Shown piece after piece: positions 4,813 to 45,082 of a stretch of DNA of 45,082 nucleotides. Source of the stretch: Bacilli bacterium. GTDB lineage: Bacteria > Bacillota_I > Bacilli_A > RF39 > UBA660. Made by a program: the position numbers and the translations under genes. The stretch's first letter is position 1. Each line of letters starts with the position of its first letter. The stretch is taken from positions 1 to 45,082 of the forward strand of contig JAQVNR010000002.1 in assembly GCA_028703035.1 (NCBI GenBank), in the 5' to 3' direction. The notes beneath the pieces were generated by a model that saw nothing but the letters and a program-made list of their open reading frames with translations, did no database searches and was not told where the DNA came from.

Positions 4813-4918
4813 TATTTTCCGCCTTTAAAGTAATATAGGGTAATAGCCCTACTTTTTAAACAGTTTCGACAAAACTAGTTTTTATTTGTTTTTAGTATTT
4901 GTAAAGTAGTTGTAAAGT

Positions 4919-7769: not shown

Positions 7770-8120
7770 TTAAAAGCCTAATATTGATGTCGTATCAAAA
7801 AACATATTTGGAGGTAAACAAACATTATATTTTTCACCAAATGAATTTATAAATTCATCAGTTAACTTTTTATTAATCTCATATTCTTTGGCAATCTCTT
7901 CTTTTATTTTTTCTCGCTTTGCATAAGCTTCTTTTGCATCTACATAAATGATTCCATAAGATATATCATATGAAAAATATATTTCATATAAATCTTCTTT
8001 AGAAGAAAATAAGCTTACTTCTACTTGTTCATCTAACACTTCACTAATCTCTAAATAAGTATTCATATAATGTCTTGCTTCTTCTGAAAAATTTTCAGTC
8101 ACATTTACCCATTTATACAT
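7770..8120 (-). CDS. Hypothetical acidic cytoplasmic protein
   Basis: 116 aa ORF lying 22 nt downstream of the DUF4143 ATPase gene. No motif recognised. Confidence 0.4.
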   Translation of the reverse strand: MYKWVNVTENFSEEARHYMNTYLEISEVLDEQVEVSLFSSKEDLYEIYFSYDISYGIIYVDAKEAYAKREKIKEEIAKEYEINKKLTDEFINSFGEKYNVCLPPNMFFDTTSILGF

Positions 8121-8142
8121 ATTTCTTCATCTCTCATTCTAT

Positions 8143-9420
8143 TTAATCTTTTAAACAGCCAATAGGCACAACAAAGATTCCATCTTCTGTTGTATAAGCT
8201 GTGTCTCCACCAGTAATAACCATATAAAAATCAGGCTCTTTAACTAGGATTTTCTCTTTGTTTTTTTCTTCTATTAATCTCCGTACTTCCCTAAGCTTAT
8301 CTAATCCTTGGTCTATTTGACTGCTTCCTAGTTTAGTTTGAATTAAACCAAATTTACCATTATTAAAGTTAATAACATGATCGCATTCTAAACCAAATCT
8401 ATCTCTATAATGTCTTACATGACCGCCGATTTTATTAGTGTAAACACTTAAGTCACGGTTAACTAAATTTTCAAAAAGGAAACCGAATGTATTTGGATCC
8501 AGCGCTAGCTCCTTAGGAGATATTTCAAGAGTAGCGGTTGCTAGAGACGGATCTACAAAACTTTTTTTAGATGAAGTTCTAATGCTTGTTTTTGACCTTA
8601 AATTTGGATTCCAAGCTTCTATTTCTTCTATTACATATAATCTTTTTAAAGTATTTATATAATCTAAAACTGTTTGTTTGCTTACTTCACCATAACTTTT
8701 AGATACATCTTCTAATATAGCTTGATTTGATTCTATCGTAGATATGTTTCTTGCATAAGATTTTAAGATATGACGAGCTAGAATTGGATTTCTTGATACA
8801 CCATCTATGTTTGATATATCTGACTCTAACAGTACCTTAACATAATCTTTTGCAATCTCTAATGCTACTTCTTTTGACTTAGAAATAGCCCCAGGCCAAC
8901 CACCCCGACAAGTTAAATATGCTAGTTCTTGATAATCTATATTAGATTTTTGACCTCTAACTCTAATACTGCCTTGGGCTATATCTTTAAGAGAGATACT
9001 CCCATTTGAATCTCCTGATTCAAATAAAGTCATCGGTTTCATATCAACAAATGAAAATCTGCCGATGCCGGTATGAAGTGTTTTATCTTTTAGTGGTGTA
9101 GCGGATCCTGTTAAAATATATAACCCAACATCATTTTTTTCATCAATATAATGTCTAACTGCATTCCATATTTTAGGAAGCATTTGCCATTCATCAATTA
9201 AACGAGGTTTATCTCCATCCAATAATAAAGAAATATCATTTTCAGCTATTTGTTTGTTTTTTTCAAGTGTCTCAAAATTTTGTAAATCAAGAACACTTTT
9301 AGATACCTGTTTAGCGCTTGTTGTTTTACCACACCATTTAGGCCCTCTAATTACTACTCCGCCAGCTACTTTTAGTTTTAATTCAATTATTTCATCGATT
9401 ATCCTTTTTTTATATTTCAT
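8143..9420 (-). CDS. AAA-family ATPase with DUF4143-type C-terminal region
   Basis: Walker A GPKWCGKTT and Walker B-like LIDEWQ. Overall architecture matches the AAA_14/DUF4143 proteins. A paralog, broken by a stop codon, is at 37215..38435. Confidence 0.6.
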   Translation of the reverse strand: MKYKKRIIDEIIELKLKVAGGVVIRGPKWCGKTTSAKQVSKSVLDLQNFETLEKNKQIAENDISLLLDGDKPRLIDEWQMLPKIWNAVRHYIDEKNDVGLYILTGSATPLKDKTLHTGIGRFSFVDMKPMTLFESGDSNGSISLKDIAQGSIRVRGQKSNIDYQELAYLTCRGGWPGAISKSKEVALEIAKDYVKVLLESDISNIDGVSRNPILARHILKSYARNISTIESNQAILEDVSKSYGEVSKQTVLDYINTLKRLYVIEEIEAWNPNLRSKTSIRTSSKKSFVDPSLATATLEISPKELALDPNTFGFLFENLVNRDLSVYTNKIGGHVRHYRDRFGLECDHVINFNNGKFGLIQTKLGSSQIDQGLDKLREVRRLIEEKNKEKILVKEPDFYMVITGGDTAYTTEDGIFVVPIGCLKD

Positions 9421-9540
9421 AATAACCTGCCTTACATTATAATTATAATATATTTTAGATAGTTTATCAACCTTATTATATGTTTTTGAAGTGTTTTGTT
9501 ATACCTTTTTGGAGTGTTTCATTGTGTGTTTTTGGAGTAA

Positions 9541-10254
9541 TTATATTTTATAATCGTATAATTTCTTAACTTCTTTAATAGATAATTTTACATATTCTCC
9601 GCTTTTAATATTACCTGATTTTAAAAATCCATATTCAACTCTAGTTAATTTATCAACTAAATAACCCATTTCTAGAAATAGTTTTTTGATAATATGATTT
9701 CTACCTTCGATGATAGATATTTCTATCAATGATGTATCTTTATCATGGTTATTTTCTTTTATTTTAACTTTAGTTGGAATGCATTTTACTCCATCTATTA
9801 TAATACCTGATTTTAATTTATGAAAATCAGCAATAGCATAGCTTTTATTAAGTTTAGCAATATATTTTTTTTCTACTTTATTTTTAGGATGCATTAAAAT
9901 ATTAGCAAGATTACCATCATTAGTTAAAATAAGTAGTCCGGTTGTATCATAATCAAGTCTTCCAACTGGATATATTCTTTTATCAGTATCTATTAAATCA
10001 ACAACAGTCTTTCTTCCTTTATCATCAGAACTTGAAGTGATAACTCCTCTTGGTTTATTAAGAAGATAATAAACCTTATCTTCTTTTTTAAGAGTTATTC
10101 CTTTAATTGTAATATCATCACTTGCCGATGCTTTAGTCCCTAGCTTAGTAACTTTTTTACCATTAACATAAACAACACCAGATTTAATTAATTCTTCAGC
10201 TTTTCTTCTAGATGTATATCCAGATTCAGCAATAATTTTTTGTAAACGTTCCAT
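9541..10254 (-). CDS. rluB: Pseudouridine synthase, RluB/RsuA family (S4 domain plus catalytic domain)
   Basis: MERLQKIIAESGYTSRRKAEELI (S4 domain) and the GRLDYDTTGLL catalytic motif. I moved the start to the internal ATG 10254, which is preceded by GAGGG. The track start at 10335 would overlap spmB. Confidence 0.8.
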   Translation of the reverse strand: MERLQKIIAESGYTSRRKAEELIKSGVVYVNGKKVTKLGTKASASDDITIKGITLKKEDKVYYLLNKPRGVITSSSDDKGRKTVVDLIDTDKRIYPVGRLDYDTTGLLILTNDGNLANILMHPKNKVEKKYIAKLNKSYAIADFHKLKSGIIIDGVKCIPTKVKIKENNHDKDTSLIEISIIEGRNHIIKKLFLEMGYLVDKLTRVEYGFLKSGNIKSGEYVKLSIKEVKKLYDYKI

Positions 10255-10300
10255 ATCAATCCCTCTATTTAATTGTACTAAATTTTTAATATAAAATCTA

Positions 10301-10819
10301 TTAAAATAGTAAATATACAAGTAAAAAGGAAGCAATTATTCCACATAAATCAGAAAAGAGTCCAACTGATAAAGCATATCTATTTTTAGTAATACCAATA
10401 CTTCCGTAGTAAAGAGCAATTACATATAAAGTTGTATCTGATGATCCCTGAATAACACTAGCAAGTAAGCCCATTGTTGAATCAGGTCCATAAATATCAA
10501 ATATATTTACCATAATTGCTAGTGTACTGGTACCTGATATACTTCTTAAGAATGTCATTGGTAAAATATCTGCTGCTAAATTTATTTTATGAAGAAATGG
10601 TTCTAAAAATAAAAACATATCACTAATGATATTACTTTTAATTAAAATATTAATTGCAAAAATCATAGCAACTATATTAGGTATTATTTTAAAAGTGGTA
10701 ATTAATCCTTCTTTAGCACCTACTAAAAATTCATCATATATGTTTACTTTTTTTTTAAACCCATACATAATTATATATAATACTAAAAGTGGTAATAAAA
10801 TAAAACTAAGTGTTGTCAT
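10301..10819 (-). CDS. spmB: Spore maturation protein B
   Basis: Polytopic membrane protein following spmA. Start set at ATG 10819, 5 nt downstream of GGAGG (10824-10828 on the plus strand as cctcc). dacB-spmA-spmB order matches B. subtilis. Confidence 0.65.
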   Translation of the reverse strand: MTTLSFILLPLLVLYIIMYGFKKKVNIYDEFLVGAKEGLITTFKIIPNIVAMIFAINILIKSNIISDMFLFLEPFLHKINLAADILPMTFLRSISGTSTLAIMVNIFDIYGPDSTMGLLASVIQGSSDTTLYVIALYYGSIGITKNRYALSVGLFSDLCGIIASFLLVYLLF

Positions 10820-11390
10820 TTTTCCTCCTGATAAAATAATCAAGAGTAAGACCACCAATACCAGCAGATAAAGTTGCTATTATGCAGGCCGGAATAACAA
10901 TTGTTGGATTAAGGCTACCATAGGTAAGCCTTAAAGAAATAATTGTTGTCGGAATAATTGTAACACCACCAGTGTTTAAAACTAAGAATGTAATCATTGA
11001 GCTAGTTGCTCTTTTTTTATCAGGATTAAGTTCTTGAAGTTTAGCCATTGCTTTTAAACCAAAAGGAGTTGCAGCTGAGCCAAGGCCAGCCATATTAACG
11101 GCAATATTACTAGCGATATAACCTATTGATTCATGATTCTTTGGTATTTTAGGAAATAGTTTAGATAAAAGAGGCGTCATTAATTTAGCAATTTTTTTAA
11201 TTAAACCACTTGCTTCAGCTATTCTCATAAGACCCATCCATATAACAAGAAGTGGGGTCATATCTTTTATTAAATTAAAAGCGGTATTCCCACTTTCAAT
11301 TATTTCGTTATTAATAACTACTATATTACCAGTAATTAGGCCATAAATAATACCTATTATAATAAAGGCTCCCCAAATAATATTAACCAC
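10806..11390 (-). CDS. spmA: Spore maturation protein A
   Basis: 194 aa nucleoside-recognition-type membrane protein. Overlaps the dacB stop. Synteny supports the call. Confidence 0.65.
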   Translation of the reverse strand: MVNIIWGAFIIIGIIYGLITGNIVVINNEIIESGNTAFNLIKDMTPLLVIWMGLMRIAEASGLIKKIAKLMTPLLSKLFPKIPKNHESIGYIASNIAVNMAGLGSAATPFGLKAMAKLQELNPDKKRATSSMITFLVLNTGGVTIIPTTIISLRLTYGSLNPTIVIPACIIATLSAGIGGLTLDYFIRRKNDNT

Positions 11391-12435
11391 TTAATCCCAG
11401 CTTTCTAAAAAGTTTTTGAAAAAAATTTAATTTTTCGGGTTTTTGTTCTTCTAGATATATTTTTTCTGTTTGATAAACTTTTCCATTTAATTTAAGTTCG
11501 ACCTCACCGATAATATTGGTAATATTTTCATCATAATAATTAATAGTAATTTCTAGTTTTTTATATTCAGCTTTTGTTAAAGTCATTTTTAAATCGTTTT
11601 TAATAAATGTGTTATTATATTTAGTTTTTATATTTCCTTTTTTTACTATTGTATAATTCTTATAATCAGCAAAATATTTATTATATAAATTTTCATGATT
11701 TTGGAAGTCATTACTATCTTTAAATGTTACTATTGTTAAATTAATATTATCTTTTGAAGCATTAGTAACTAAAGTTCTTTTAGCAAGTTCAGTAAAACCT
11801 GTTTTACCACCAGTACAGTACTGATAAGTATTTAAAAGTCTATTTTTATTATTCCAAATATATGTTTTATAATTAGTTTTAACTATATGTTTTTTAGTAC
11901 TTGTTATCTTTTGATAAATTTTATTGTTAATAGCATAGCTTGATAATAGTCCCATATCATAAACACTAGATTTATTTCCATCTTTATTATTTTCTTCAAG
12001 TCCATGGTTATTTAAAAAGAAAGTGTTTTTCATATTAAGTGATTTTGCAGTATCATTCATAAGACTTGCAAAGCCCTCCATCGAACCACCAACATGATAA
12101 GCTAGCGCAATAGAGGCATCATTTCCGCTTCTAAGCATTAAACCATAAAGTAGATCTTCAACGCTTATTTTTTCACCTACTTCAATATAAATACCGCTAC
12201 CATAACTTTTTAAAACTTCATTTCCTATTTTTATTTCTTCTTTTAAACTCCCATTATTTATAACAACCATTGCGGTCATTATTTTAGTAGTTGAAGCAAT
12301 TAAATAAGGAGCATGAATATTATTTCCTTCTAATACTCTAATATTATCTGTATCCATGACAATATAAGCAGAGGCACTTATAGCATCAACTTTAATAGGT
12401 AAAATTAAAAGAAGTAACAGGATTATTTTTTTCAT
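11383..12435 (-). CDS. dacB: D-alanyl-D-alanine carboxypeptidase (sporulation PBP5*-like)
   Basis: Signal peptide plus SxxK (ASTTK), SxN (SGND) and KTG (KTGFT) motifs in the correct order. Confidence 0.8.
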   Translation of the reverse strand: MKKIILLLLLILPIKVDAISASAYIVMDTDNIRVLEGNNIHAPYLIASTTKIMTAMVVINNGSLKEEIKIGNEVLKSYGSGIYIEVGEKISVEDLLYGLMLRSGNDASIALAYHVGGSMEGFASLMNDTAKSLNMKNTFFLNNHGLEENNKDGNKSSVYDMGLLSSYAINNKIYQKITSTKKHIVKTNYKTYIWNNKNRLLNTYQYCTGGKTGFTELAKRTLVTNASKDNINLTIVTFKDSNDFQNHENLYNKYFADYKNYTIVKKGNIKTKYNNTFIKNDLKMTLTKAEYKKLEITINYYDENITNIIGEVELKLNGKVYQTEKIYLEEQKPEKLNFFQKLFRKLGLSG

Positions 12436-12492
12436 AAAATCACATTTAATATTATGTATAAACTTTAAAAAAATGAAATTTAGAATTAATAG

Positions 12493-13091
12493 TTACTTAA
12501 ATTTAGTTATTTGACTTAATCTTATTTCTAATTCATTAAAATCATCATTAGAACAAGTTTCAAAAGTTTTATTCAACAGTTCTTCTGATAAATTTAATTT
12601 ATTAATAATTTCCTTGCTTTTGTTTTTGGTTAAATTATAACCCCTAAGACTATAAAACTTTATTAAAGTTATTAAAACAGATTTTACTCTTGGTTGAGAT
12701 TAAAACTACTAGGAAAAATTTCTAAATACTTTGTAGTCTGAAAAAAACAATTTGTTAGAATAGACAGTTTATTGTTCTGTTTCTTTAAGATTCCATCCAC
12801 ATATTTATTTCCTACTATCATATATAACTCATTAAATTCACACTTTAACAATTTATTTATAAAAGGTTCAATAATCCTATATGGTAATGATGTAATAATT
12901 TTATCACATTTGGGAATATAGCAATTAAGGACATTGCCAAAAACCAATTCAGTATTTTTATGTTGCCTTGCTATTTCTTCAAGTTGAGTTGTTAATCTTT
13001 GATCAAGCTCTATACAAGTTACTTTCTTTGCTTTTTGGGCAATTAAATTAGTTAAAATGCCTAAACAAAGCAAATACTGCAACAATTTCAT
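12493..13091 (-). pseudogene. Decayed rRNA adenine dimethyltransferase-family gene (KsgA/Erm-like)
   Basis: The 135-aa ORF carries GILTNLIAQKAKKVTCIELD, ITSLPYRIIEPFINKLL and LEIFPSSF. The expected continuation (PRVKSVLITL...ITKFK*) is in another reading frame from about 12690 to the stop at 12493-12495. The SAM motif I is degenerate and N-terminally cut. A short GNAT-like N-terminal fragment (...NLYLLTNKDEIVAVFALF) lies just upstream at 13048-13213. Confidence 0.5.
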
Positions 13092-13213
13092 CTTTATTTG
13101 TTAACAAGTAAAGATTTTTTTCTTCTATATCCTCTTTAAACATTTCATAAGGATAATACTCATTCCAAATATTAATATTATCAGCATTCGTCTTTGCAAT
13201 AATTTTGTGATAC

Positions 13214-13972
13214 TTATATTTTATTAAATAAAGTGTTAATAAATTCAAAGAGTAAATTCCAACTACAAAAACATAAAAATAAACTAGTTGCCAAAAACGG
13301 TCCAAAAGGTAGCGTTCCATCACTGTTTTTAATTGAGATATATACTGCATAGGGAAAAGCTAAAAAAGCAGCAATTATTATGTAAAATATACCAATTGGA
13401 ATACCTAAAACCATTCCAGCAATAAATGATAACTTTATATCTCCACCGCCTAAAGACTCTTTTTTAAATAAGAAGTTTCCTAAAAGCATTAATAAATACA
13501 TCATTAAAAATATTACTAAACCATTTCCTAAACTTTGTAAAGAATATATTAAACCTTTATAAATAATATTAACTAATAAAATTAGTACCCCACTTGCTAC
13601 TAGCATTTCATCTAAAATAATCATATGTTTAGTATCTGTTATAAGTATTAAGACTACCAAACTAGATAAAATTATTGCTAAATAAAAATCATACCCTATT
13701 CCAAATAAGTTATAGCTAATTAAGAAAAGTATCCCAGTTAAAAGCTCCATAGATGGGTACATAAAAGATATTTTTTGATGACAATTTTTGCATTTGCCTC
13801 TTAAGAAAAGATAAGAAATAACAGGGATATTTTCATACCATACTAAAGTATGATTACATTTAAGGCAATGACTACGAGGAAAGAGTATTGATTCTTTTCT
13901 TAAAAGTCTGATTCCGACTACATTATAAAAAGATCCTAGTAAAAGACCTAGTATAAATATAAATACTCCCAT
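13214..13972 (-). CDS. pilD: Prepilin (type IV leader) peptidase/N-methyltransferase, A24 family
   Basis: CLKCNH...CKNCH zinc-binding pairs, a polytopic body and the catalytic GGGDIKL motif. Confidence 0.8.
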   Translation of the reverse strand: MGVFIFILGLLLGSFYNVVGIRLLRKESILFPRSHCLKCNHTLVWYENIPVISYLFLRGKCKNCHQKISFMYPSMELLTGILFLISYNLFGIGYDFYLAIILSSLVVLILITDTKHMIILDEMLVASGVLILLVNIIYKGLIYSLQSLGNGLVIFLMMYLLMLLGNFLFKKESLGGGDIKLSFIAGMVLGIPIGIFYIIIAAFLAFPYAVYISIKNSDGTLPFGPFLATSLFLCFCSWNLLFEFINTLFNKI

Positions 13973-13981
13973 AATACCTCC

Positions 13982-15595
13982 CTATTTTATTTTAGAATAT
14001 AATTCAAACATTGGTAATATTACTGCCATAACAATTCCTCCAACAACGACAGCTAAAAATATTATCATTGCCGGTTCAATAAAACTTTTCATACTATTAA
14101 TAATACTCTTATGACTCCCTTGATAATAACTAGCAACTCTAGCCATCATGTCTGCAAGTTCTCCAGTTGATTCTCCTGTAACTATCATGTAATATGCTAC
14201 ATCTGGGACAGCCCAGTGATTTTTAAATGAATCACTAATTTTATCACCCTTAGCAATATTATCTATTGTCTTAATCATTATTTCTTTATATATTTCATTA
14301 TTAGTAATATTAGTAAGTAAACTAATACTTTCAGTTATAAATACTTGACTTTTTAAAAGTGAAGAGAATGTTTTAGCAAAAATACTCATCTCTTTATATA
14401 TAATAATCTTACCAATTAAAGGTAATTTCATTAAAACTTTTTGCAACATATATCTAAAAGCTTTAATTTTTTTATAAAAAATCATTATAATTACACTAAA
14501 AATAAACATAATTAATAATATATAAGTTATATTAGAAGTTAAAAAATCACTTGAATTAATAATTAATAAAGTAAATGGATTAATTTCAGCACCAGCTGAT
14601 TCATAAACTCCTTCAAACTTTGGAATAACAAAAATTAAGATAAAAACAACAACTGCTATTGAAAACACCATTATTATTGTAGGATAACTCATCGCACTAA
14701 TCATTTGTTTTCTAGTTTGTTCTACTTCTTCATAATAATTAGCCATTTCATCTAAAGTTTCCTCAAGTTCACCTGTTGCCTCTGCTGCTCTAATCATATT
14801 AATTAAAAGCTGAGGAAAAACATTATGTTGTTTTTCTAGAGCCGAAGAAAAAGCTTCACCTAGAGTTAGATTATAAATAATTGAATCAAAAATCCTTTTC
14901 TTACTAGCCTCTTTACTCATCTGTTTACTTAGAATTCGCATTGAATCCGTTAAAGGAATACCTGACTTAATATAAGTAGATAATTGAGTAAGCCAAAATA
15001 TTAAATCTTTATTTTTAAATTTACCGGAATTAAAAGATGTCGGTCCATATAAAAATTCAATCATTTTGGAAGTTTCTATTTTTAATACTCGATAGTTTTC
15101 ATTTTCTAAATAAGTATAAACTTCTACTTTAGAATAGGCAATAAAGGTATTAACTTCTTTTTTTCCATCGCTATTAATCGCAGTATATCTATATGTAAGC
15201 GGTTTATCACTTCTACTTACATCATCTTGAAGTGAGCTAATTAAAAAAGTTCTTTCTCTTTCTTCTTTTTCTTTTTTCTTTTTAACAAAAAATAAATTAT
15301 TATAAAAATTAGTGAATTTTGATTCCTTTGGTGGTAGCTTTTCTTCAACCTCTTCATCTTGCTCTTCATCAATTTTTAAACTTACTGATTCATTAGGGGC
15401 AATATCTTCAATATTAAGTTTTCTATTTTCCTGTTTTTGATATATTTTAAATATATTATCACCTATAATTTTAAAGAATATTCTAAAAGGAGATATTATA
15501 CCATATGAAACATAGTAACAACCTAAAAAGAAATACATTAATATTAAAAAAGGAAGCTTTAAAATAGTTATAAAGATTTTGTTTATTTTCTTCAT
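13982..15595 (-). CDS. pilC: Type II secretion/type IV pilus platform protein (GspF/PilC family) with N-terminal extension
   Basis: The C-terminal ~350 aa have the duplicated GspF architecture (...AAEATGELEETLDEMANYY... and ...TGESTGELADMMARVASYY...). The first ~180 aa are an extra TM segment plus a charged region. Confidence 0.75.
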   Translation of the reverse strand: MKKINKIFITILKLPFLILMYFFLGCYYVSYGIISPFRIFFKIIGDNIFKIYQKQENRKLNIEDIAPNESVSLKIDEEQDEEVEEKLPPKESKFTNFYNNLFFVKKKKEKEERERTFLISSLQDDVSRSDKPLTYRYTAINSDGKKEVNTFIAYSKVEVYTYLENENYRVLKIETSKMIEFLYGPTSFNSGKFKNKDLIFWLTQLSTYIKSGIPLTDSMRILSKQMSKEASKKRIFDSIIYNLTLGEAFSSALEKQHNVFPQLLINMIRAAEATGELEETLDEMANYYEEVEQTRKQMISAMSYPTIIMVFSIAVVVFILIFVIPKFEGVYESAGAEINPFTLLIINSSDFLTSNITYILLIMFIFSVIIMIFYKKIKAFRYMLQKVLMKLPLIGKIIIYKEMSIFAKTFSSLLKSQVFITESISLLTNITNNEIYKEIMIKTIDNIAKGDKISDSFKNHWAVPDVAYYMIVTGESTGELADMMARVASYYQGSHKSIINSMKSFIEPAMIIFLAVVVGGIVMAVILPMFELYSKIK

Positions 15596-15703
15596 TTAGC
15601 TTCCCTCTTTCGTATTCTAAAATAATTGTATCAAAATCCTAGTCTAAAGTCTAGAACTTCTAATAACCAGATTTTGTAAAAATAATGGGCCTAAATATTT
15701 CAA

Positions 15704-16020
15704 TTATAAATCGCTGTTTATAAATTCTTCATAACTGCCTATTTCTTTAAAGGTCAAATAATACTCGCCATCTCTTTTTTTAAATAAAACGGAATCAATT
15801 CCTACTCACTGTCGTAGTACTTTATGTAATGCTCGCCATGCTCTAAGACCCCGGGGGAACCTACTATGAAGAGTATCGACTTCCGCTTATCGTATTAACG
15901 AGGCTCAATTACTTCACACTTTCGTATTACGGCTCGCATTCTTTCTTGCCTATGCTTAAACCTTATCTCACGACTTCGGCTCCAAGGCTAGATACTGACG
16001 TTTGGCTACTCTTTTGCTTT
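15704..16020 (-). pseudogene. ORF-free, locally GC-richer segment with broken reading frames (unidentified gene remnant)
   Basis: No ORF of 60 aa or more on either strand. The minus strand reads ...GIDSVLFKKRDGEYYLTFKEIGSYEEFINSDL* to a stop at 15704-15706. Upstream coding-like pieces sit in other frames. Identity unknown. Confidence 0.3.
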
Positions 16021-37214: not shown

Positions 37215-38435
37215 TTAAAACTCATCATTCATTAAAAAATCTATTGCATTAAGATGCTTTATTCCATTTCTAGTATAGTCTTCTTTATCTAAGGATATTA
37301 CATATTTTTCATGATTATCATTTATGACATTATAAGCACCAAATTCTCTTTCTATTGTTTTTTCGTTATTAGCTAGCTTATAAGAAACTTGAATATATTT
37401 TAATTCTTTGTTTTTTATGACAACAAAATCAACTTCATCTCTTTTTATTTTACCTATATATACTTCATACCCCTTTGCTATTAAATCATTATAAATCAAA
37501 TTCTCTAAGCTAGTAGAATAATTCTCGATCTTTAGATTACTTTTAATTTTTTTAACTCCTAAATCAGAAACATAATACTTATTTAATGTTTTAAGAACAT
37601 TTTTACCATCAACATCATATCTATACACTTTATTAAGTAAAAAGGTTGAACATAAAGCATCTAAATAACTATATAAAGTTGAATTTGATATTTTTATATT
37701 TTCATTTGCTAAAAATTTCATGATATTTGTAGAAGAAAATTCTTTACCTTCAATTTCTAAAAGGTACTGAAAAATTTTATTAAATGTTGTAATATCTTTT
37801 ATTCCAAGTCTTTCAACAACATCTTTTAAAACTATAGAATCATATACATTAGATATATAATTTGTTTTCATAGCGTTATCATTATAATAAAATCTTTGTG
37901 GTAAACTTCCCCACTCAAATATATCTAAAATTAAATTTTCATAATCTTCCTTAGGGGTTTTTGTTAACTCTATTATTTCTTTAAAAGTTAGTGGATTTAC
38001 TTTGAAACTGACATATCTTCCAGTCAACTCTGTTGATAATTCCGCAAATGTCATTTTACTATTAGAGCCGGTAATGAAAATACTATATCGGCCTTCTATT
38101 CTCAAAGAATTAATTGCTTTCTCAAAGTCGATAACTTTTTGAACTTCATCTAAAAATATATAATATACTTTTTTAGTCTTTGTTAATTTTTATATATATG
38201 TATCTAAAGACTTAGCATCAGTTATATTGCTGTAATCTAGTGATTCAAAATTTATATAAATTATTTGTTCATCATTTATTCCTTGTTCTTTTAATTCTTC
38301 AATTATTTGTGTTAAAATAACTGATTTTCCAGATCTTCTTAAACCATAAATTATTTTGATTAATAATGTATCTTTATAAAATCCTCTGATTTTTTTTAAA
38401 TATAACTCTCTTTTTATCATAAAGTAACCTTCCAA
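37215..38435 (-). pseudogene. AAA/DUF4143-family ATPase gene interrupted by a single in-frame TAA
   Basis: ORFs 38190..38435 (Walker A GLRRSGKSV) and 37215..38105 are in the same frame. Reading through the TAA at 38190-38192 gives ...DTYI*KLTKTKKVYYIFLDEVQ (Walker B). Confidence 0.75.
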
Positions 38436-39784: not shown

Positions 39785-39821
39785 AGGGGTATGGTCTAAT
39801 GGCATGATGACGGTCTCCAAA
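39785..39821 (+). pseudogene. Decayed 5' half of tRNA-Trp (remnant 1)
   Basis: AGGGGTATGGTCTAATGGCATGATGACGGTCTCCAAA aligns with tRNA positions 1-37. Similarity stops after the anticodon loop, and there is no 3' half. Confidence 0.7.
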
Positions 39822-39918
39822 TTAGGAAGTACCATATTATAGATTAAATAAATATATATTTATTTAAGTAAGAAAATAAGGAATTTTTAATTAAAGAGTG
39901 CATCTATAAGTTAATTAT

Positions 39919-39955
39919 AGGGGCATAGTTAAATGGTATAATAATGGTCTCCAAA
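39919..39955 (+). pseudogene. Decayed 5' half of tRNA-Trp (remnant 2)
   Basis: AGGGGCATAGTTAAATGGTATAATAATGGTCTCCAAA has the same end point as remnant 1. Confidence 0.7.
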
Positions 39956-40067
39956 TTATATCACTAGGTAGAATAAAAGATATACTATTTATATAAATAG
40001 TATAAGAGTTCAAAGCCTTTAAAATAAAGGAATTGCAAGAATATTTAGAGAATTAATTTTTAGTTAT

Positions 40068-40141
40068 AGGGGTATAGTTCAATGGTAGAATAACGGTCTC
40101 CAAAACCGCTGATGCGAGTTCAATTCTTGCTACCCCTGCCA
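40068..40141 (+). tRNA. tRNA-Trp (anticodon CCA), CCA-encoded
   Basis: Folds by hand. Acceptor AGGGGTA/TACCCCT, D arm GTTC-AATGGTA-GAAT, anticodon loop CTCCAAA, T arm GCGAG-TTCAATT-CTTGC, discriminator G plus CCA. Confidence 0.9.
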
Positions 40142-40334: not shown

Positions 40335-41384
40335 ATGGCAAGTTCTATTAGTCAAAACGCTATTAACGAATTGACAAACTTTTTAACCAATTTTGCTACA
40401 CCAGAATTGGAAAACCGCAAGAAGATAGAAAATCTATCTTTTGATACTGCGAAGTCTTACTTTTTTGAAAACATGAAAGAAAGGAGGCTGGCGGAAGAAA
40501 CTTTTAGCTTTTATAATTCGCAACTAAGATCATTTGAGAAATATCTTATTCTGATAAAGAAGAAAAATGCACTTAACGAATTAACCGAAAGTGAAATTAA
40601 GTATTATTTGAATAATAAGTACTCTAAGCATAATGTCTACACTCAAAATTGCCACATTAGGGCAATTCGTGCATTTTTCAATTACTTAGAAAAAGATGGT
40701 TATATAACCGCCAACCCAGTTTCCCATTTAAAAGTTCTTAAACAACCTAAACAAAAGATAGATTATCTATCAATAGACCAGATACGAAAACTACTTACCA
40801 GTTTTGATTTACGGAAGAAAAGCGAAATCAGAAACTTATTAATTATAATGCTGCTTTTAGATACTGGAGTTCGTATTAAAGAATTATGTAATATAAAAAT
40901 TGAAGATATTGATTTCGCTAATCGTAGTATTTATGTTTATGCTACTAAGACTCATACTTTTCGTACTGTCTATTATTCAAAAGAAACTGAAGCGATAGTA
41001 AATATTTATCGTAATGAAATTTTAAGGTCTAAAGAAAATGGACCACTGCTTTTAAAGTTTCACGCATATTTAGATATTCCATTGGATGAAGCATTACCAA
41101 AAGAAAGAGCTCAAAACTGGATAAATAAAAAAGGTAAAAAGCTATTCGGAAAAGATTTTAGGCTTCATCCACATAAATTTAGACACACTTTTGCTACTCA
41201 TTATATAATAAATGGCGGTGATCCGTTTTCTTTAAAAGATTTATTAGGCCATACTAACATTGAAACAACTAACATCTATGTAGATATGACACAAAAAGAC
41301 CTTAAAATTAAACACAATGAACATGGAATATTTGCTTCTGTTTCTAATGTGGAGCAAAAAACAGGAGATAATTATGAAGATTAA
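40335..41384 (+). CDS. Tyrosine recombinase/phage-type integrase
   Basis: LLLDTGVRIKEL (Arg I), HKFRHTFAT (HxxR) and LLGHTNIETTNIYV (His, Tyr). Located 194 nt downstream of the tRNA. Confidence 0.85.
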   Translation: MASSISQNAINELTNFLTNFATPELENRKKIENLSFDTAKSYFFENMKERRLAEETFSFYNSQLRSFEKYLILIKKKNALNELTESEIKYYLNNKYSKHNVYTQNCHIRAIRAFFNYLEKDGYITANPVSHLKVLKQPKQKIDYLSIDQIRKLLTSFDLRKKSEIRNLLIIMLLLDTGVRIKELCNIKIEDIDFANRSIYVYATKTHTFRTVYYSKETEAIVNIYRNEILRSKENGPLLLKFHAYLDIPLDEALPKERAQNWINKKGKKLFGKDFRLHPHKFRHTFATHYIINGGDPFSLKDLLGHTNIETTNIYVDMTQKDLKIKHNEHGIFASVSNVEQKTGDNYED

Positions 41385-41562
41385 AGCCACTAAAAGAAGG
41401 ATGACAATTTGCAGTGCCGATACAAATAAATCATTATTAATTATAAAAGGAAAGTGGTTTCGTAATTGCGGCTTTAATCCCGGAGATATGGTCGAATTAT
41501 CTACCACAAAATCTGGTAAATTAATAATTACTAATAAAGGTAGCAAATATCATCAAAATTGA
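41374..41562 (+). CDS. SymE/SpoVT-AbrB-like small protein (SymE-family toxin-like)
   Basis: LLIIKGKWFRNCGFNPGDMVELSTTKSGKLIIT parallels E. coli SymE [31 protein letters not shown]. ATG 41374 is preceded by AGGAG and overlaps the integrase stop. Confidence 0.55.
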   Translation: MKIKATKRRMTICSADTNKSLLIIKGKWFRNCGFNPGDMVELSTTKSGKLIITNKGSKYHQN

Positions 41563-41722: not shown

Positions 41723-41752
41723 AGAATTGAACTCGCATCAGCGGTTTTGGAG
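41723..41752 (-). repeat. Perfect 30-bp inverted copy of tRNA-Trp positions 40098-40127 (anticodon loop to T-loop)
   Basis: agaattgaactcgcatcagcggttttggag is the exact reverse complement of ctccaaaaccgctgatgcgagttcaattct. The flanking bases mismatch on both sides. Confidence 0.9.
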
Positions 41753-41921
41753 CGTAAGCCTCGCGCTATTTTATTTTGTTAAAAAGTGCTACAATCCCTT
41801 TAATTTTGAGGGTTTGCTTATTTAATTTTATTTTCTAAAAAGGTGGAATAATCCCACTTATTTAGAATTATCCCACCAAAAACCCACTTTTATTATAAAT
41901 TTAATGGAAGAGCAAGGATAA

Positions 41922-42131
41922 TTATCCTAAATTATTATTTGTGCTTGGATCAGGATTTGAAACAGGAGTTTCTTTTCCCTTGATAACTCTTATATGGTAA
42001 TTTTCATAATTTCCTTTTTTGATTTCTTTTACAAAATCAGAAGCTTTCATTATGTTTTTATTGTAATTATCTCTAAAAAGTTCATTTCTACCCTTAGAAC
42101 CTTCTTTAATTACACTAACTCGTTTTGCCAT
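41922..42131 (-). CDS. Small DUF3892-like protein
   Basis: 69 aa. GGAGG RBS. The C-terminal ...VSNPDPSTNNNLG resembles the ...D....NNL tail I recall for DUF3892. Confidence 0.4.
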   Translation of the reverse strand: MAKRVSVIKEGSKGRNELFRDNYNKNIMKASDFVKEIKKGNYENYHIRVIKGKETPVSNPDPSTNNNLG

Positions 42132-42379: not shown

Positions 42380-43195
42380 CTATTTTTTTAAAGCATTTAA
42401 ATTACCTTTATGCACTTCTAAAAATACTCTTTCAAGTTCTTTATAAATGATATTAGATAATTTATCACTTTCTAAAACTTCAAGAATTCTAACACTGCCA
42501 TATAAAGAAATATATTTTGTGATATAAGTATAAATATTATGATTGTTTTCTCCCGTTTCGCACTTTTTAAAAGTTTCATGATATTTTTCATTTTTATAAT
42601 ATTTGTCGAACAATTTTTTTTCAGCCTTAATTGCACTTATTACTATATGTCTATTATTACTTCTCCATGTTAGATTTCTAATTCTTTCTATTTTTTCAAA
42701 AACAAATCTTGTCAGCTCGTACTTATCTTCTCTTGATTCATCAATTGTAAATTCTGTCCAAAAATAACTTCTTGAGTGAGGGCTGAAAAACAAAGATCTT
42801 CTCTTACCTCTTGTAAAAATCCACGTACCTGCAAAAGTTGTTTCCTTTTTTAAAGGCATTGATTGTATTGTAGCTCTATAACACTTTTCTAAGTTTATCC
42901 AAACCCAAAATCTTTCATCTGTTAATACATATCTGGGTAATTGCTTTAACGATTCATACAATATAATCGCATTTTCCGTTTCAACCTTTGAATAATCACC
43001 AGTAACATCAACTTTTAATTGAAAGTTTATGATTTTGTTTTTTCTCGCTTCAAAAATTTTACCGGAAATCATTTTTTGTAACCACTTGGAATCAAGAGGG
43101 TTCTGTCTTATGAATTCAGTTGCTTTATTATGGTTTTCATGTAAAGAATTAACTGTTTCGTCAGTAGCGAAAAAAACATTTATACTATCTTCCAT
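42380..43195 (-). CDS. Hypothetical protein, third gene of three-ORF operon
   Basis: 271 aa. Its start is 1 nt after the stop of the preceding ORF. Trp-rich segment ERFWVWINLEK and basic TRGKRRSLFFSPHSRSYFW. No catalytic motif recognised. Confidence 0.6.
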   Translation of the reverse strand: MEDSINVFFATDETVNSLHENHNKATEFIRQNPLDSKWLQKMISGKIFEARKNKIINFQLKVDVTGDYSKVETENAIILYESLKQLPRYVLTDERFWVWINLEKCYRATIQSMPLKKETTFAGTWIFTRGKRRSLFFSPHSRSYFWTEFTIDESREDKYELTRFVFEKIERIRNLTWRSNNRHIVISAIKAEKKLFDKYYKNEKYHETFKKCETGENNHNIYTYITKYISLYGSVRILEVLESDKLSNIIYKELERVFLEVHKGNLNALKK

Positions 43196-43196
43196 C

Positions 43197-44111
43197 TTAT
43201 TCCTCCTCCATTATTTCTTCTCTATTTTCAGTTACAATATTTTTAAAATCAGTAATAGCTTTTGTTACACAGTTATTAATTATTTTTTGAGAAAATGAAA
43301 GTATATCTAATTGTAAAAAGGAACTTTGCTCTAATTCTTTTCCGTACAAATTACTATAAGCTTTTTGGATGGCACCAAACCATATATATTGTTCTCTTAT
43401 TTCTTCTAATGTTCTATCTTTCATTTCTGTCTCTCTTTGAATATTATTTAAACAAATACTCAAGGCAGGAATGACTATTATAGAAAAAAATATATTCATA
43501 AAATTATCATGATATTTTAATTTGTCATAGAAATTAAACTCTTTTTCTGGCAAAGTTATTCTTATTTTTCTTTCCTCTGCAACCACTTTCATTGTGTCCA
43601 GTTTTTCATCCAAACTTTTAATGACTAAAAAAATTGAAGAGACCTTCTTGTCAACCGAATCATCATATTCTACATTAAAAACAAAACCATCATCAATTGC
43701 TAATATATTTGATTCTTCAAAAGAAAATTTATAACCATTATAATCTTCCAATAAATCATAGTTCGTATAATCTTCTATGTTTTTATTTGAATACACCAAG
43801 CTAGAAATTTCAACTCGACCATTTAAATTTTTTAAAGGGATAACGATATCTTTTGGTTCAAACGAAATTTTTTCTATGTGTTTATAGATTGTTGATGAAC
43901 ACTCCACTATAACAACTGCATTTAAAGTGTCATTTAGGATCATATTTTTTAAATCACCATTGTTTGTTTCAATGTGTACGTTTTTCAAAATATAATTATC
44001 CTTTGTTTCTTCATCAATATATTCCAAAGAATAATTTGAACTTTTATAACAGTTATAATTTTCAGCATTGTTCAAAATCGGATATGGAAATAATCGCTTA
44101 CCTATTTGCAT
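43197..44111 (-). CDS. Hypothetical protein, second gene of three-ORF operon
   Basis: 304 aa. N-terminus MQIGKRLFPYPIL. Hydrophobic helix NIFFSIIVIPALSICL. Overlaps the upstream ORF by 14 nt. Confidence 0.6.
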   Translation of the reverse strand: MQIGKRLFPYPILNNAENYNCYKSSNYSLEYIDEETKDNYILKNVHIETNNGDLKNMILNDTLNAVVIVECSSTIYKHIEKISFEPKDIVIPLKNLNGRVEISSLVYSNKNIEDYTNYDLLEDYNGYKFSFEESNILAIDDGFVFNVEYDDSVDKKVSSIFLVIKSLDEKLDTMKVVAEERKIRITLPEKEFNFYDKLKYHDNFMNIFFSIIVIPALSICLNNIQRETEMKDRTLEEIREQYIWFGAIQKAYSNLYGKELEQSSFLQLDILSFSQKIINNCVTKAITDFKNIVTENREEIMEEE

Positions 44112-44814
44112 ACATTTTCACCTCACAAGCATAAAAATCTAATAGATCAGTATCTAAATCAAAGATGTACTTTTTATTTCTTTCGATTTTAAATCCCCTT
44201 ATCACATTATTTGAAATTTTATAGTCGATATTATTTATAGTACATTTTGATATATTTGGAATATATTTGTTGCCATTATTATCTAAATAGAATAATTCTA
44301 AGTCACAGTTGGTTTCATCATAAATCGAATTAAAAATAATCAAATACTTACCTTTAGATTTGTCGGGCACTAAAATTCTATATTTTATACCACTTAACTG
44401 CACTTTTTTCATTATGTCTTTTTCGCCATCTGATGAATATCCAGTCGATTTGTCTGCTTCATGAAATTCGCCATCATTACTGTTATTAGTTCCTTCTGGC
44501 ATGATTCCTTCTTCGTTATCTTCAATAAAATCACCAACATCAGGAGATAGAGAATTATTCCCTTCTTGTGAATCTTCTCCCAATTTATTCTTAAGCTCGA
44601 CTTTCCTTTTTGAGTTTATTTTAGGTTTTTCTTCAGTATTTTTATCAGTTAGATCGGTTGAGGCTTCACCAAGTTCCTGATCCGGCAAATACTCACCAAT
44701 TTGGATATCTGGTACTATGCATAATATATACTCAATTGGGAGCACAGCTTCTAATGATTGCATATATATCGGCACCAGTTTCAATATGAGTAGAGGAGTT
44801 AAAGCTCCCTTCAA
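44098..44814 (-). CDS. Hypothetical protein, first gene of three-ORF operon (start uncertain, possibly 5'-truncated)
   Basis: 238 aa. About 100 aa of D/E/N/S/K-rich low-complexity sequence are followed by a compact C-terminal domain (MKKVQLSGIKYRILVPDK...). An alternative ATG lies at 44763. The extreme 5' end overlaps the antisense methyltransferase remnant. Confidence 0.5.
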   Translation of the reverse strand: MKGALTPLLILKLVPIYMQSLEAVLPIEYILCIVPDIQIGEYLPDQELGEASTDLTDKNTEEKPKINSKRKVELKNKLGEDSQEGNNSLSPDVGDFIEDNEEGIMPEGTNNSNDGEFHEADKSTGYSSDGEKDIMKKVQLSGIKYRILVPDKSKGKYLIIFNSIYDETNCDLELFYLDNNGNKYIPNISKCTINNIDYKISNNVIRGFKIERNKKYIFDLDTDLLDFYACEVKMYANR

Positions 44815-44963
44815 ATCTTATGAAGGAAGAAAATATAAAGACAAACGATGGTAAACAAATGAAAGATGTTTGGGAGTCTTCGTTGACCAAACCGAGTGAA
44901 AAGAAACATGGCAAACATCCAACTCAAAAACCCGTGTTTTTACTTGAAAGAATTATGATATAA
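44681..44963 (+). pseudogene. Internal fragment of an N6/N4 DNA methyltransferase, frameshifted and truncated
   Basis: 44790-44963 reads ...DGKQMKDVWESSLTKPSEKKHGKHPTQKPVFLLERIMI*. This carries the HPTQKP...L.ERI motif that normally precedes the DPFxGSGTT SAM motif, which is missing here. Upstream, ...FNMSRGVKAPFKSYEGRKYKDK is in another frame. Confidence 0.55.
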
Positions 44964-44972
44964 GAACTCAAA

Positions 44973-45082
44973 ACATCCAACCTGACCACCCAACCTCAAA
45001 AATTTCCCCAAAAACATCTAACCTGACCACTCACGAATGCTGACATCTAACTCGACCACTCGCGGGGCTATAACATCTAACC
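44973..45082 (+). repeat. Array of four direct copies of a ~19-nt motif ACATC(C/T)AAC(C/T)(T/C)GACCAC(C/T)C, cut by the window end
   Basis: Copies at 44973-44991, 45014-45032, 45043-45061 and 45073-45082 (truncated). Spacing is 41/29/30 nt. The array starts 10 nt after the truncated methyltransferase reading frame ends. Confidence 0.8.

Follow-up and report, generated by a model that had tools for sequence, protein, structure and literature searches.

The Mza system (mzaABCDE) reportedly combines a MutL-like GHKL ATPase with a sigma-70-like protein, MzaA. AbiR, of the lactococcal plasmid pKR223, is said to be encoded by an abiRa-abiRb-abiRc operon beside the Sau3AI-type GATC system LlaKR2I; it reportedly stops phage DNA from replicating and, in the absence of the LlaKR2I methylase, is toxic. 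The paraMORCs have been linked to restriction-modification, mainly through superfamily-II helicases and RE-fold or Vsr endonucleases, and one group, paraMORC2, is defined by an ExxxH motif (Iyer, Abhiman & Aravind 2008, PMC2292703). VcSduA, a type I-D Shedu protein (paraMORC3-like), combines in one polypeptide an N-terminal GHKL ATPase and a C-terminal DUF4263 PD-(D/E)xK nuclease and is predicted to form a dimeric clamp; its defence against phages depends on the catalytic Glu of the ATPase (PMC12137116). VcSduA is thus an example of an anti-phage system powered by a GHKL engine (PMC12137116).

How does the operon considered here compare with these systems? It lies at 42380-44814 in a stretch of 45,082 nucleotides from a Bacilli bacterium (contig JAQVNR010000002.1), referred to below as the window. 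On balance, the window probably holds a recently inactivated copy of the candidate system PDC-M33, and the intact family is best read as a methylation-linked, paraMORC-driven defence module.

Family assignment

A sequence-only reading of the window had described three minus-strand frames, ORF1 (44098-44814, 238 aa, TTG start), ORF2 (43197-44111, 304 aa) and ORF3 (42380-43195, 271 aa), with a 14-nt overlap of ORF1 and ORF2 (44098-44111) and a single-nucleotide gap (43196) before ORF3; re-derivation gave the same coordinates, overlap and gap. That reading could assign the operon to no named family. The family exists: PADLOC models match all three proteins as PDC-M33A, PDC-M33B and PDC-M33C, a listed candidate anti-phage system (PADLOC-DB v2, PDLC04582-04587). 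The genes are adjacent on a single strand in the order A, B, C that the PDC-M33 definition requires, and the overlaps, the gene order and the lengths of B and C agree with it. A literature search for PDC-M33 and DUF6339 found no experimental study under either name.

ORF2 is an intact gene B, with a full-length match to the M33B model (4e-61; residues 1-298 align with positions 1-288 of the 289 in the model). ORF3 is an intact gene C, with matches to two M33C models (PDLC04586, 2.1e-25; PDLC04584, 1.1e-20). The statement that the operon has no recognisable domains fails for ORF3, which contains DUF6339 (Pfam PF19866, 1.4e-25; residues 72-251 on model positions 2-174 of 175) with a score of 90.5 bits where the cut-off is 23.2; in ORF1, the apparent absence of domains is due to the truncation. 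The M33A model is matched by ORF1 at positions 421-625 of 627 only (8.2e-17), so that by PADLOC search the window lacks a complete M33A (about 627 model positions) and holds just the last third of the model. The A protein of an intact allele, the metagenomic contig L001, matches the same model at positions 3-625 (8.4e-140).

Protein A in intact relatives

L001 is identical to the window over 4,688 bp (100%) and carries on one strand the genes for a DpnII-type endonuclease, an N6/N4 DNA methyltransferase (Pfam N6_N4_Mtase, 3.3e-65) directly upstream of A, then A (637 aa), B (304 aa) and C (271 aa). The earlier caveat that ORF1 may be 5'-truncated was therefore well placed, as ORF1 in intact homologues is far longer, at 637 aa. 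In the AlphaFold2 (AF2) model of intact A, pLDDT exceeds 90 across most of residues 50-420. A structured N-terminal module (residues 1-428) is followed by a disordered stretch (429-532) and a beta sandwich (533-637), which bears out the description of ORF1 as an acidic stretch and a compact C-terminal domain.

Foldseek searches with the model retrieved Hsp90 (4e-9), TRAP1, TopoVI-B and the SMCHD1 ATPase module (6e-5) at a probability of 1.00, over about 450-480 aligned columns. The second domain of A aligns with the middle or transducer domains of Hsp90, TopoVI-B and SMCHD1. Among 48 A sequences, down to 27% identity, the GHKL motifs are invariant: E42, N46 and D49/A50 (ExxxNxxDA); D117, T120 and G122 (DxGxG); G154, G157, G159 and K160 (GxxGxG); and T204 and G206 (a Thr-containing motif). 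Sequence searches gave less: HATPase_c_3 was matched weakly in 7/42 members (best 0.003), and a profile search of the PDB with the A sequence returned nothing. The predicted structure thus identifies A as a GHKL/Bergerat-fold ATPase with a transducer-like second domain.

An ExxxH motif, E385-N-P-Q-H389, is invariant near the end of the structured module, as are N386 and W392. A thereby carries the defining motif of paraMORC2, a likeness drawn from the motif and from the description in PMC2292703 rather than from the sequences of that study; no Pfam or NCBIfam model matched A as a paraMORC2. With paraMORC2 it shares an N-terminal GHKL module with intact ATP motifs, a transducer-like and possibly S5-like second domain with ExxxH at its C-terminal end, a Gram-positive distribution, linkage to a DNA methylase and occurrence in mobile islands. 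In contrast to VcSduA, A ends in a beta-sandwich tail, has no nuclease and is accompanied by two separate partner genes. The tail gave only weak Ig/FnIII-like matches; no nuclease family or fold was found in A with Pfam, PADLOC or Foldseek, and no DUF4263 match in Pfam or PADLOC. Unlike MutL, A has no C-terminal dimerisation/endonuclease domain.

A rearrangement has removed the ATPase from the window

When full-length A (P0121) was compared with the window by tblastn, residues 439-637 matched at 44697-44101 and nothing else of A was found. What remains of gene A (44098-44697, minus strand; PADLOC, tblastn and blastn) thus codes for residues 439-637 out of 637, which by the domain limits of the AF2 model comprise the disordered acidic linker and the beta sandwich at the C-terminus. 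Residues 1-438, with the GHKL ATPase and the transducer, are absent, and all GHKL motifs I-IV have gone with them. The reported lack of an ATPase signature in ORF1 is explained by this loss.

What has replaced the front of the gene? By blastn, the remnant is 100% identical to L001 from position 2904 of that contig onwards, and identity breaks at a junction at 44697/44698, which was read base by base and shows a 2-nt microhomology. The next 39 codons of ORF1, including its TTG start (44698-44814, minus strand), are a spurious 5' extension, namely the antisense of an inverted methyltransferase fragment and of part of a 96-nt stretch. As a gene, ORF1 is not real; just 44098-44697 is homologous to the A protein of the family. 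Its start is also inconsistent, gene callers having given products of 196 aa and 226 aa on sister contigs.

Beyond the junction lie pieces of the N6/N4 DNA methyltransferase gene, which match L001 in plus/plus orientation while the operon matches in plus/minus. The first piece (44699-44741, plus strand; blastn and tblastn) corresponds to L001 913-955, within a blastn match to L001 911-955. It is followed by the 96-nt stretch (44742-44837), which by alignment replaces 171 nt of the methyltransferase gene that are kept in both L001 and L002, a sister contig; blastn-short and tblastx searches of the window and all fetched loci revealed no source for it. A second methyltransferase piece (44838-44956, plus strand; 98.3% blastn identity to L001 1127-1244) encodes ...DGKQMKDVWESSLTKPSEKKHGKHPTQKPVFLLERI and is cut on its 3' side by the end of a mobile element. 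This element end (44957-45082) runs off the contig and contains direct 17-nt repeats, ACATCYAACYYGACCAC, at 44973, 45014 and 45043, with a fourth, partial one at 45072. Another metagenome contig (L092) has these 127 nt at 100% identity next to unrelated DNA (a CPBP/Rce1-like gene), and the match stops exactly at window position 44956.

In the window, an illegitimate, inversion-type rearrangement has fused A at codon 439 to the middle part of the methyltransferase gene, now inverted, and the mobile element subsequently cut the methyltransferase fragment. A single inversion junction is visible because the contig ends 385 nt beyond it. Two sister contigs, L002 and L003, carry the same junction, which places the rearrangement of A and the methyltransferase gene in at least three independent assemblies, the window included. 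With the ATPase gone and the promoter side replaced, the window locus is most likely non-functional.

Surroundings of the operon

The genomic context is as the sequence-only reading described it: a tRNA-Trp gene (40068-40141), an integrase gene (40335-41384), the methyltransferase remnant and the mobile-element end were all found, and the SymE-like frame has a weak SymE/AbrB-like match (Pfam E=0.0018, below the cut-off). Its placement of the operon inside a tRNA-Trp island is loose, in that the sole tRNA-derived repeat (41723-41752) is inverted and brackets the integrase and the SymE-like frame only. The tyrosine recombinase lies 3 kb from the operon and is bracketed by perfect 30-nt inverted repeats. 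A terminator scan located a terminator-like hairpin (41842-41877, minus strand) 3' of C and of a 69-aa frame; the transcription unit probably ends at this hairpin. The 69-aa frame (41922-42131) is lineage-specific, occurring in L001 and L002 and at 0/80 genome loci. The G+C content of the window is 26-31%.

Proteins B and C

B is identical in L001, L002 and L003, and its family comprises 2,169 clusters at 50% identity. Its predicted fold consists of a beta-rich N-terminal domain (~27-187) and a helical domain (189-304); an AF2 model of a joined B+C chain has a mean pLDDT of 80, and about 90 across most of B. The N-terminal motif M1...P9-Y10-P11 is invariant. C, modelled as mostly helical, is rich in Trp and Arg and evolves fastest of the three proteins; once distant members are added, only N75, W97, R133, R142, Y159 and F164 survive as conserved residues. 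Neither protein has a structural relative in the PDB or BFVD at E<=0.001, and no nuclease or other effector fold was recognised in B or C. A PD-(D/E)xK nuclease had been considered for B and was dropped because D140, D141 and K156 are not invariant. Both genes keep good, Shine-Dalgarno-like ribosome-binding sites (GAGGTG before B), and B and C could still be expressed in the window from another promoter.

The two partners set PDC-M33 apart from paraMORC operons, as B and C are of no known fold and a helicase was seen near the triad once only (L089, with a GIY-YIG nuclease), whereas paraMORC operons mainly have a superfamily-II helicase. They also set it apart from classical restriction-modification systems, since no endonuclease domain is recognisable in A, B or C.

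Conservation, carriers and neighbours

Are the three genes a unit? Among 80 genomes, A precedes B in 68/68 cases and B precedes C in 62/62, a strict synteny that establishes their co-conservation. The 14-nt overlap of A and B is kept in 54/68 related loci and is therefore not due to chance. Distant triads are found on plasmids (L. lactis pS127, L. salivarius pMP1046A and P. megaterium p3_GEB3) and in the temperate phage NatCom_9291, where it is located in the lysogeny region, next to the integrase and away from the morphogenesis genes. Like the intact L001 allele, these phage and plasmid homologues match all three PDC-M33 models over their full length.

The neighbourhoods are of a defence type: besides plasmids and a prophage, the triad is found near restriction-modification, Abi and toxin-antitoxin genes, including those for Mrr, GmrSD, AbiG, AbiEii and HipA. 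The idea that the operon is a defence or other conflict system is thus favoured, at the level of the family, by the candidate-family listing, the synteny and the defence neighbours; for the family we infer a defence role from these.

PDC-M33 is defined as three genes, and the comparative loci show further partners that PADLOC does not model: an ORF of ~72 aa (62/72 loci), a sigma-70 region 4 protein of ~850 aa (36 loci) and a Dam-family methyltransferase. The last (TIGR00571, above the cut-off) lies within 2 kb in 33/47 loci and is directly adjacent in 23/47. GATC specificity is assumed for these enzymes from their family membership. This linkage of PDC-M33 to Dam-family/GATC methylation is strong and so far undescribed. 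In several loci, a minority, DpnII- or Sau3AI-type systems adjoin the triad as separate neighbours; a Sau3AI-type system does so in L004 and on the P. megaterium plasmid p3_GEB3. The methyltransferase may belong to the neighbour wherever a full system of either type adjoins the triad, and this includes the window's own lineage (DpnII-type). A methyltransferase in cis is not obligatory, as in the Anaeroplasmataceae A-B-C lies among housekeeping genes and no DNA methyltransferase is nearby.

These neighbours invite comparison with two of the systems mentioned above. Like Mza, extended M33 loci combine a GHKL ATPase with a sigma-70 region 4 protein. The optional ~850-aa protein matches MzaA (PADLOC 1.6e-6; NCBIfam NF041931 1.9e-8) over about 60 helix-turn-helix residues only and is absent from the window's lineage; the PADLOC Mza models gave no match to A, B or C at E<=0.01. 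AbiR is reportedly likewise a set of three genes beside a Sau3AI-type system, and M33 triads also occur on L. lactis plasmids. No Abi model in PADLOC matched A, B or C from the window, L001 or the phage and plasmid homologues, and no pKR223-like region was found in PLSDB. If PADLOC holds AbiR models, as it presumably does, this argues against homology, and the resemblance would then be one of analogy only.

A third comparison is with MutL-MutH-Dam mismatch repair. Here too a GHKL ATPase goes together with GATC methylation, and MutH/Sau3AI-family endonucleases are recurrent neighbours of the triad, an analogy made in PMC2292703. In contrast to that system, PDC-M33 has no MutS partner and its loci are accessory and mobile.

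Proposed mechanism and alternative explanations

In the intact system, a DNA methyltransferase, usually of the Dam family or part of a DpnII- or Sau3AI-type GATC system, would mark the host DNA. A dimer of A would then act on unmarked incoming DNA by ATP-driven clamping, together with B and C. The fast-evolving, Trp- and Arg-rich C is a likely reader of DNA or of its modification, and cleavage or a block to replication are candidate executing activities.

A more specific version, which we regard as unlikely, is that defence is methylation-gated and needs no nuclease: A, as a paraMORC2-type clamp guided by B and the reader C, both with folds not seen before, would topologically trap, compact or block the replication of DNA that lacks a GATC/Dam-type mark, or else B or C would be a new type of nuclease, and losing methyltransferase and ATPase in one inversion would shed the system. 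If this is true, the nuclease-free clamp would be a bacterial counterpart of MORC/SMCHD1 silencing, and joint disruption of the two genes by one inversion would let a cell discard the system without damaging itself.

Might PDC-M33 not be an anti-phage system itself? It could be an accessory of GATC restriction-modification or Dam methylation, for example a MutL-like activator of a MutH/Sau3AI/DpnII-type endonuclease, or it could serve mobile elements for addiction, maintenance or silencing. This would suit a MutL/MORC-type GHKL ATPase in a triad with no recognisable nuclease, recurrent Sau3AI/MutH-family or DpnII endonucleases and Dam-family methyltransferases alongside, carriage by plasmids and a prophage, and the MutL-MutH analogy drawn for paraMORCs (PMC2292703). 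However, the triad cannot rely on one particular endonuclease next to it, because in many loci a methyltransferase is present but an endonuclease is not recognisable, and in some both are missing; moreover, the PADLOC listing arose from defence-island context, and AbiG, GmrSD, Mrr and AbiEii are unrelated defence neighbours. An accessory role is improbable.

It is doubtful, to a considerable degree, that the truncated locus still works, with B and C, perhaps helped by the linker and tail of A, as a self-sufficient toxin or defence pair for which the ATPase was a mere regulator, its loss making the pair constitutive or changing its regulation. Both genes are undamaged, do not differ from their counterparts in the intact allele and are each preceded by their own Shine-Dalgarno-like sequence, and the rearranged allele is not rapidly lost, as it turns up in the window, L002 and L003, at least three independent assemblies. 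Yet B and C were never found without a full-length A directly upstream (68/68, 62/62), no residues in the whole system are as strictly conserved as the ATPase motifs of A, and the locus has lost its native upstream region. Because the copy is still 100% identical to the intact allele, selection has had no time to act either way, and B and C presumably remain intact only because the inactivation is recent.

Phase variation, with the inversion acting as a reversible, programmed ON/OFF switch instead of reflecting decay, is very improbable. Both orientations do occur, L001 against the window, L002 and L003, in flanks that are otherwise 100% identical, and the tyrosine recombinase with its perfect 30-nt inverted repeats is 3 kb away. 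Against this, inverted repeats at the breakpoints are at most 6 nt (chance level) and the microhomology just 2 nt; both breakpoints are intragenic and destroy both genes, and the methyltransferase fragment has been damaged further by the 96-nt replacement and the mobile-element insertion.

Finally, an origin of the ORFs as housekeeping or prophage structural genes, or as chance frames in AT-rich DNA (at 26-31% G+C, long frames can arise spuriously, and one homologous triad is in a phage genome), is refuted by the conservation data, with hundreds to thousands of homologues of conserved length and order, no PHROG-type or structural matches in BFVD and a phage triad that sits by the integrase in the lysogeny region.

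Significance of the family

The PDC-M33 family is real and widespread, and the window copy is probably dead. By itself this copy is of little matter and would be a poor choice for cloning. PDC-M33 is already catalogued as a candidate system. The family merits attention for its thousands of sequence clusters, its strict synteny, its link to Dam-family/GATC methylation, a MORC-like ATPase and two partners without structural relatives, and its carriage by chromosomal islands, by plasmids in lactic acid bacteria and by a temperate phage. If the family is validated, the ~72-aa ORF, the ~850-aa sigma-70 region 4 protein and the methyltransferase would join the PADLOC definition as accessory genes, and PDC-M33 would offer a tractable bacterial model of how MORC-type GHKL ATPases read DNA methylation.

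PDC-M33 and the Locus in the Window

Three minus-strand ORFs lie in the window: ORF1 (44098-44814, 238 aa, TTG start), ORF2 (43197-44111, 304 aa), and ORF3 (42380-43195, 271 aa). Their coordinates, the 14-nt overlap of ORF1 with ORF2, and the 1 nt between ORF2 and ORF3 were all reproduced. The sequence-only reading had found no recognisable domains in these proteins and had considered them not assignable to any named family; neither statement holds. ORF3 is the sole ORF of the three with a Pfam match (DUF6339, 1.4e-25), and in the PADLOC library all three fall to one candidate system, PDC-M33, whose genes A, B, and C we refer to as the triad. ORF2 is M33B (full-length match, 4e-61), ORF3 is M33C (2e-25), and ORF1 is M33A, matched at model positions 421-625 of 627 only (8e-17). 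NCBIfam returned no match for the three window ORFs, no consistent match was obtained for B in Pfam and NCBIfam or for full-length A in NCBIfam, and a literature search for PDC-M33 or DUF6339 found no paper containing either term. The locus derives from PADLOC PDC-M33, yet does not carry the complete A of that system; it is a broken copy within a catalogued candidate system. On balance, the earlier observation is confirmed in part, and its reading as a defence or conflict module is supported in part. That identity and decay are both correctly called is very probable.

Origin of the Broken Allele

How did the copy become broken? An exact-sequence look-up of ORF2 led to three metagenome contigs, one of which (L001) carries the intact locus, all on one strand. 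The order is the C-terminal portion of a restriction endonuclease (DpnII family), then an N6/N4 DNA methyltransferase of 316 aa; A (637 aa) starts 16 nt past the methyltransferase and is followed by B, identical to that of the window, then by C, a 69-aa ORF, and an integrase. Window positions 44698-40011 are 100% identical to L001 2904-7591. Past 44698, the window switches from A to pieces of the methyltransferase gene in opposite orientation (L001 911-955 and 1127-1244), and the junction reads ...GGCAAATACTCACC/AATTTGGATATC..., with 2-nt microhomology. Codons 1-39 of ORF1 consist of methyltransferase sequence read in antisense, together with a 96-nt stretch (44742-44837), which stands in place of 171 nt of the methyltransferase gene kept in L001 and in the sister contig L002; a search for the source of this stretch found none. 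Within the whole window, only residues 439-637 of A are encoded, and the earlier caveat that ORF1 might be 5'-truncated and the locus a decayed copy was correct.

A programmed inversion was rejected, since no inverted repeat was found at the two inversion breakpoints; together with the 2-nt microhomology, this favours an illegitimate event of the inversion type over site-specific switching. The event is recent, as the window and the intact allele still encode identical B and C. The junction between A and the methyltransferase is common to L002 and a second sister contig, L003; thus, the rearranged allele circulates. With its ATPase module, native upstream region, and methyltransferase all disrupted, the copy in the window is most likely inert.

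Mobile Surroundings of the Locus

The proposed island context was largely borne out, with a tRNA-Trp gene (40068-40141), a tyrosine integrase (40335-41384), a DNA methyltransferase remnant just beyond ORF1 on the opposite strand, and a repeat-bearing element end at the contig edge. The small ORF described as a SymE-like toxin is also present, with a SymE/AbrB-type match that is weak and sub-threshold. The mobile-element end (44957-45082) interrupts the methyltransferase fragment a second time, at 44956/44957. This element end bears direct 17-nt repeats ACATCYAACYYGACCAC at 44973, 45014, and 45043, with a further, partial one at 45072. An identical 127 nt of this element end is found in another metagenome contig, L092 (Ga0265294_10119538, 773-899), beside unrelated DNA with a CPBP/Rce1-like gene, and the match stops exactly at the 44956/44957 boundary, which confirms that the element end is mobile. 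Its 112-aa ORF has no Pfam match, and the element end has no Rfam match. The junction pattern, searched in metagenome contigs to extend past 45082, was absent; the element end alone was found once, in L092.

Several other traces of rearrangement are visible nearby. The 3' 30 nt of the tRNA-Trp gene (40098-40127) are repeated perfectly, in inverted orientation, 1,595 nt downstream (41723-41752), and the two copies bracket only the integrase and the SymE/AbrB-like ORF (41317-41562), a layout shared with L001. These inverted att-like sites suggest an invertible or rearranged integrase cassette. Upstream of the tRNA gene, two direct repeats (39800-39824 and 39911-39955) resemble its 5' half from the D-arm to the anticodon loop, with 72-89% identity to 40060-40107; ARAGORN calls neither as a tRNA, and they may be tRNA remnants of earlier integration or recombination events. 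Within 37215-38435, what looks like one DUF4143-family ATPase gene is split into two successive ORFs on the minus strand (38190-38435, 81 aa; 37215-38105, 296 aa, AAA_14 and DUF4143) and may be another pseudogene adjoining the island.

Proteins of the Intact System

The intact triad consists of A with two obligate partners, B and C. In the AF2 model, full-length A (mean pLDDT 77.5) comprises a confident module (residues 1-428), a disordered acidic linker (429-532), and a beta sandwich (533-637). Foldseek matches the module to the N-terminal and middle domains of Hsp90 (4e-9), TRAP1, TopoVI-B, and the ATPase module of SMCHD1. The GHKL motifs (E42/N46/D49, D117-x-x-T-x-G122, G154-x-x-G-x-G-K160, and T204-x-G206) are invariant down to 27% identity, as are E385-x-x-x-H389 and W392; intact A is a GHKL ATPase that has all catalytic residues. 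That the earlier reading saw no ATPase signature in the three ORFs is explained by the loss of this module from the copy in the window. No nuclease is recognisable in the triad. In the description by Iyer, Abhiman and Aravind (PMC2292703), paraMORC2 proteins are recognised by a conserved ExxxH motif that closes the second domain; the family occurs in Gram-positive bacteria and cyanobacteria and is linked to restriction-modification genes. A fits paraMORC2 on the testable features, such as the invariant ExxxH motif.

B and C were modelled as one chain from an unpaired alignment (mean pLDDT 80). In B, which is well supported, a beta-rich N-terminal domain precedes a helical C-terminal one; the C part, which draws on 9 sequences only, is predominantly helical and has low confidence at residues 106-137. 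Neither model has a match in PDB or BFVD at E<=0.001. Searching PDB chains with sequence profiles of A, B, and C gave nothing meaningful, and profile-profile comparison among the three found no internal homology. A PD-(D/E)xK nuclease in B, guessed from E70, D140/D141, and D154-x-K156, was rejected: the beta-rich domain has no nuclease match in PDB or BFVD, and D140, D141, and K156 vary among distant members. The invariant residues of C are few (N75, W97, R133, R142, Y159, and F164), a sparse pattern that fits a specificity or sensor component.

Conservation and Genomic Context of the Triad

Homology searches yielded 182 relatives for B, 121 for C, and at least 1,053 for A; as the proposed check on ORF1 length foresaw, the A homologues are longer than ORF1 (all about 630-650 aa, as against 238 aa). 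A B profile found 2,169 clusters at 50% identity among 1.84 billion representatives, all of them stand-alone proteins of about 300 aa. An A-profile scan with one genome per species gave 80 loci, scored with our own HMMs. All classifiable loci belong to Bacillota, the hosts being uncultured Bacilli, Erysipelotrichaceae, Anaeroplasmataceae, Clostridia, Veillonella, Ligilactobacillus ruminis, and Fusibacter. The proposed check on gene order came out in favour of a conserved unit, with B directly 3' of A in 68/68 loci and C directly 3' of B in 62/62; the 14-nt A/B overlap recurs in 54 of 68.

Intact loci also carry conserved extra genes outside the PADLOC definition (L004-L087; for example, L004 5865-6086; L006 3573-6116; L005 4431-5726). 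Of 72 loci, 62 have a helical ORF of about 72 aa immediately upstream of A, and 36 loci have, between the two, an ~850-aa protein whose sigma-70 region-4 HTH is like that of MzaA. In 13 loci, a DUF6996/DUF6997/DUF7226 protein is found between the Dam methyltransferase and the ~72-aa ORF. The lineage of the window has none of the three. Between C and a hairpin that strongly resembles a terminator (41842-41877) lies a 69-aa ORF (41922-42131) confined to this lineage (L001 and L002); its DUF3892 match is weak and sub-threshold. For want of conservation, the ORF was rejected as a fourth component.

Dam-family/GATC methyltransferases are often linked to the triad, either within its operon or adjacent to it. 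A Dam-family enzyme, called by a TIGR00571 score above its cut-off, lies within 2 kb of the module in 33 of 47 loci and directly adjacent in 23, and at several loci DpnII-type or Sau3AI/MutH-type GATC systems abut the triad. This linkage is stronger than the PADLOC definition implies. The exception is in Anaeroplasmataceae, where a bare triad sits amid housekeeping genes with no DNA methyltransferase nearby.

As the check on context bore out, intact triads sit in accessory, mobile regions, plasmids and a temperate phage among them. Distant homologues, with A about 27% identical, keep the A-B-C order in four mobile elements. On L. lactis plasmid pS127, where an intact operon occupies 106588-110213 of NZ_CP061323.1, the triad is beside AlwI and AbiGI/GII; on P. 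megaterium p3_GEB3, it is beside dcm and a Sau3AI-family endonuclease. On the L. salivarius megaplasmid pMP1046A (L089, locus coordinates 4636-15956), it lies between type I hsdS/hsdM, with no hsdR in view, and a block encoding a 900-aa DNA methyltransferase, a DEAD-box helicase, and a GIY-YIG nuclease, a layout that hints at partnerships of the triad with methyltransferases outside the Dam family. In the temperate phage NatCom_9291 of [Clostridium] innocuum (PV036421.1, 1907-5986), a complete PDC-M33 adjoins the integrase. It comprises a 74-aa ORF, A (637 aa), B (294 aa), and C in its long form (354 aa), and a DNA methyltransferase lies about 1 kb downstream; the phage offers a cultured-host source of the system for experiments. 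Another intact operon is that of Ligilactobacillus ruminis DSM 20403 (L080).

Relation to Known Systems and Possible Mechanism

Does PDC-M33 belong to a known defence system? A is not Shedu, as it has no DUF4263, and PDC-M33 is not Mza, since only the HTH of the optional ~850-aa accessory protein resembles MzaA. A striking analogue is lactococcal AbiR (pKR223), reportedly an operon of three genes that depends on the GATC methylase of LlaKR2I, the Sau3AI-type system next to it; no PADLOC Abi model matches the triad, so homology to AbiR is unsupported. A tblastn search for a Sau3AI region like that of pKR223 turned up no Lactococcus plasmid, and AbiR is not mentioned in Tesson 2022.

A defence or conflict role for PDC-M33 is fairly likely. 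In a possible but rather tentative methylation-gated mechanism, the methyltransferase would mark self DNA, and a dimer of A with B and C would act on unmarked incoming DNA by ATP-driven clamping. This proposal is patterned on the model put forward for paraMORCs (PMC2292703) and on VcSduA, a validated GHKL-Shedu (PMC12137116). With no recognisable nuclease, a MORC-like ATPase, two partners without a fold match, and a link to Dam/GATC methylation, the PDC-M33 family merits more attention than the copy in the window.
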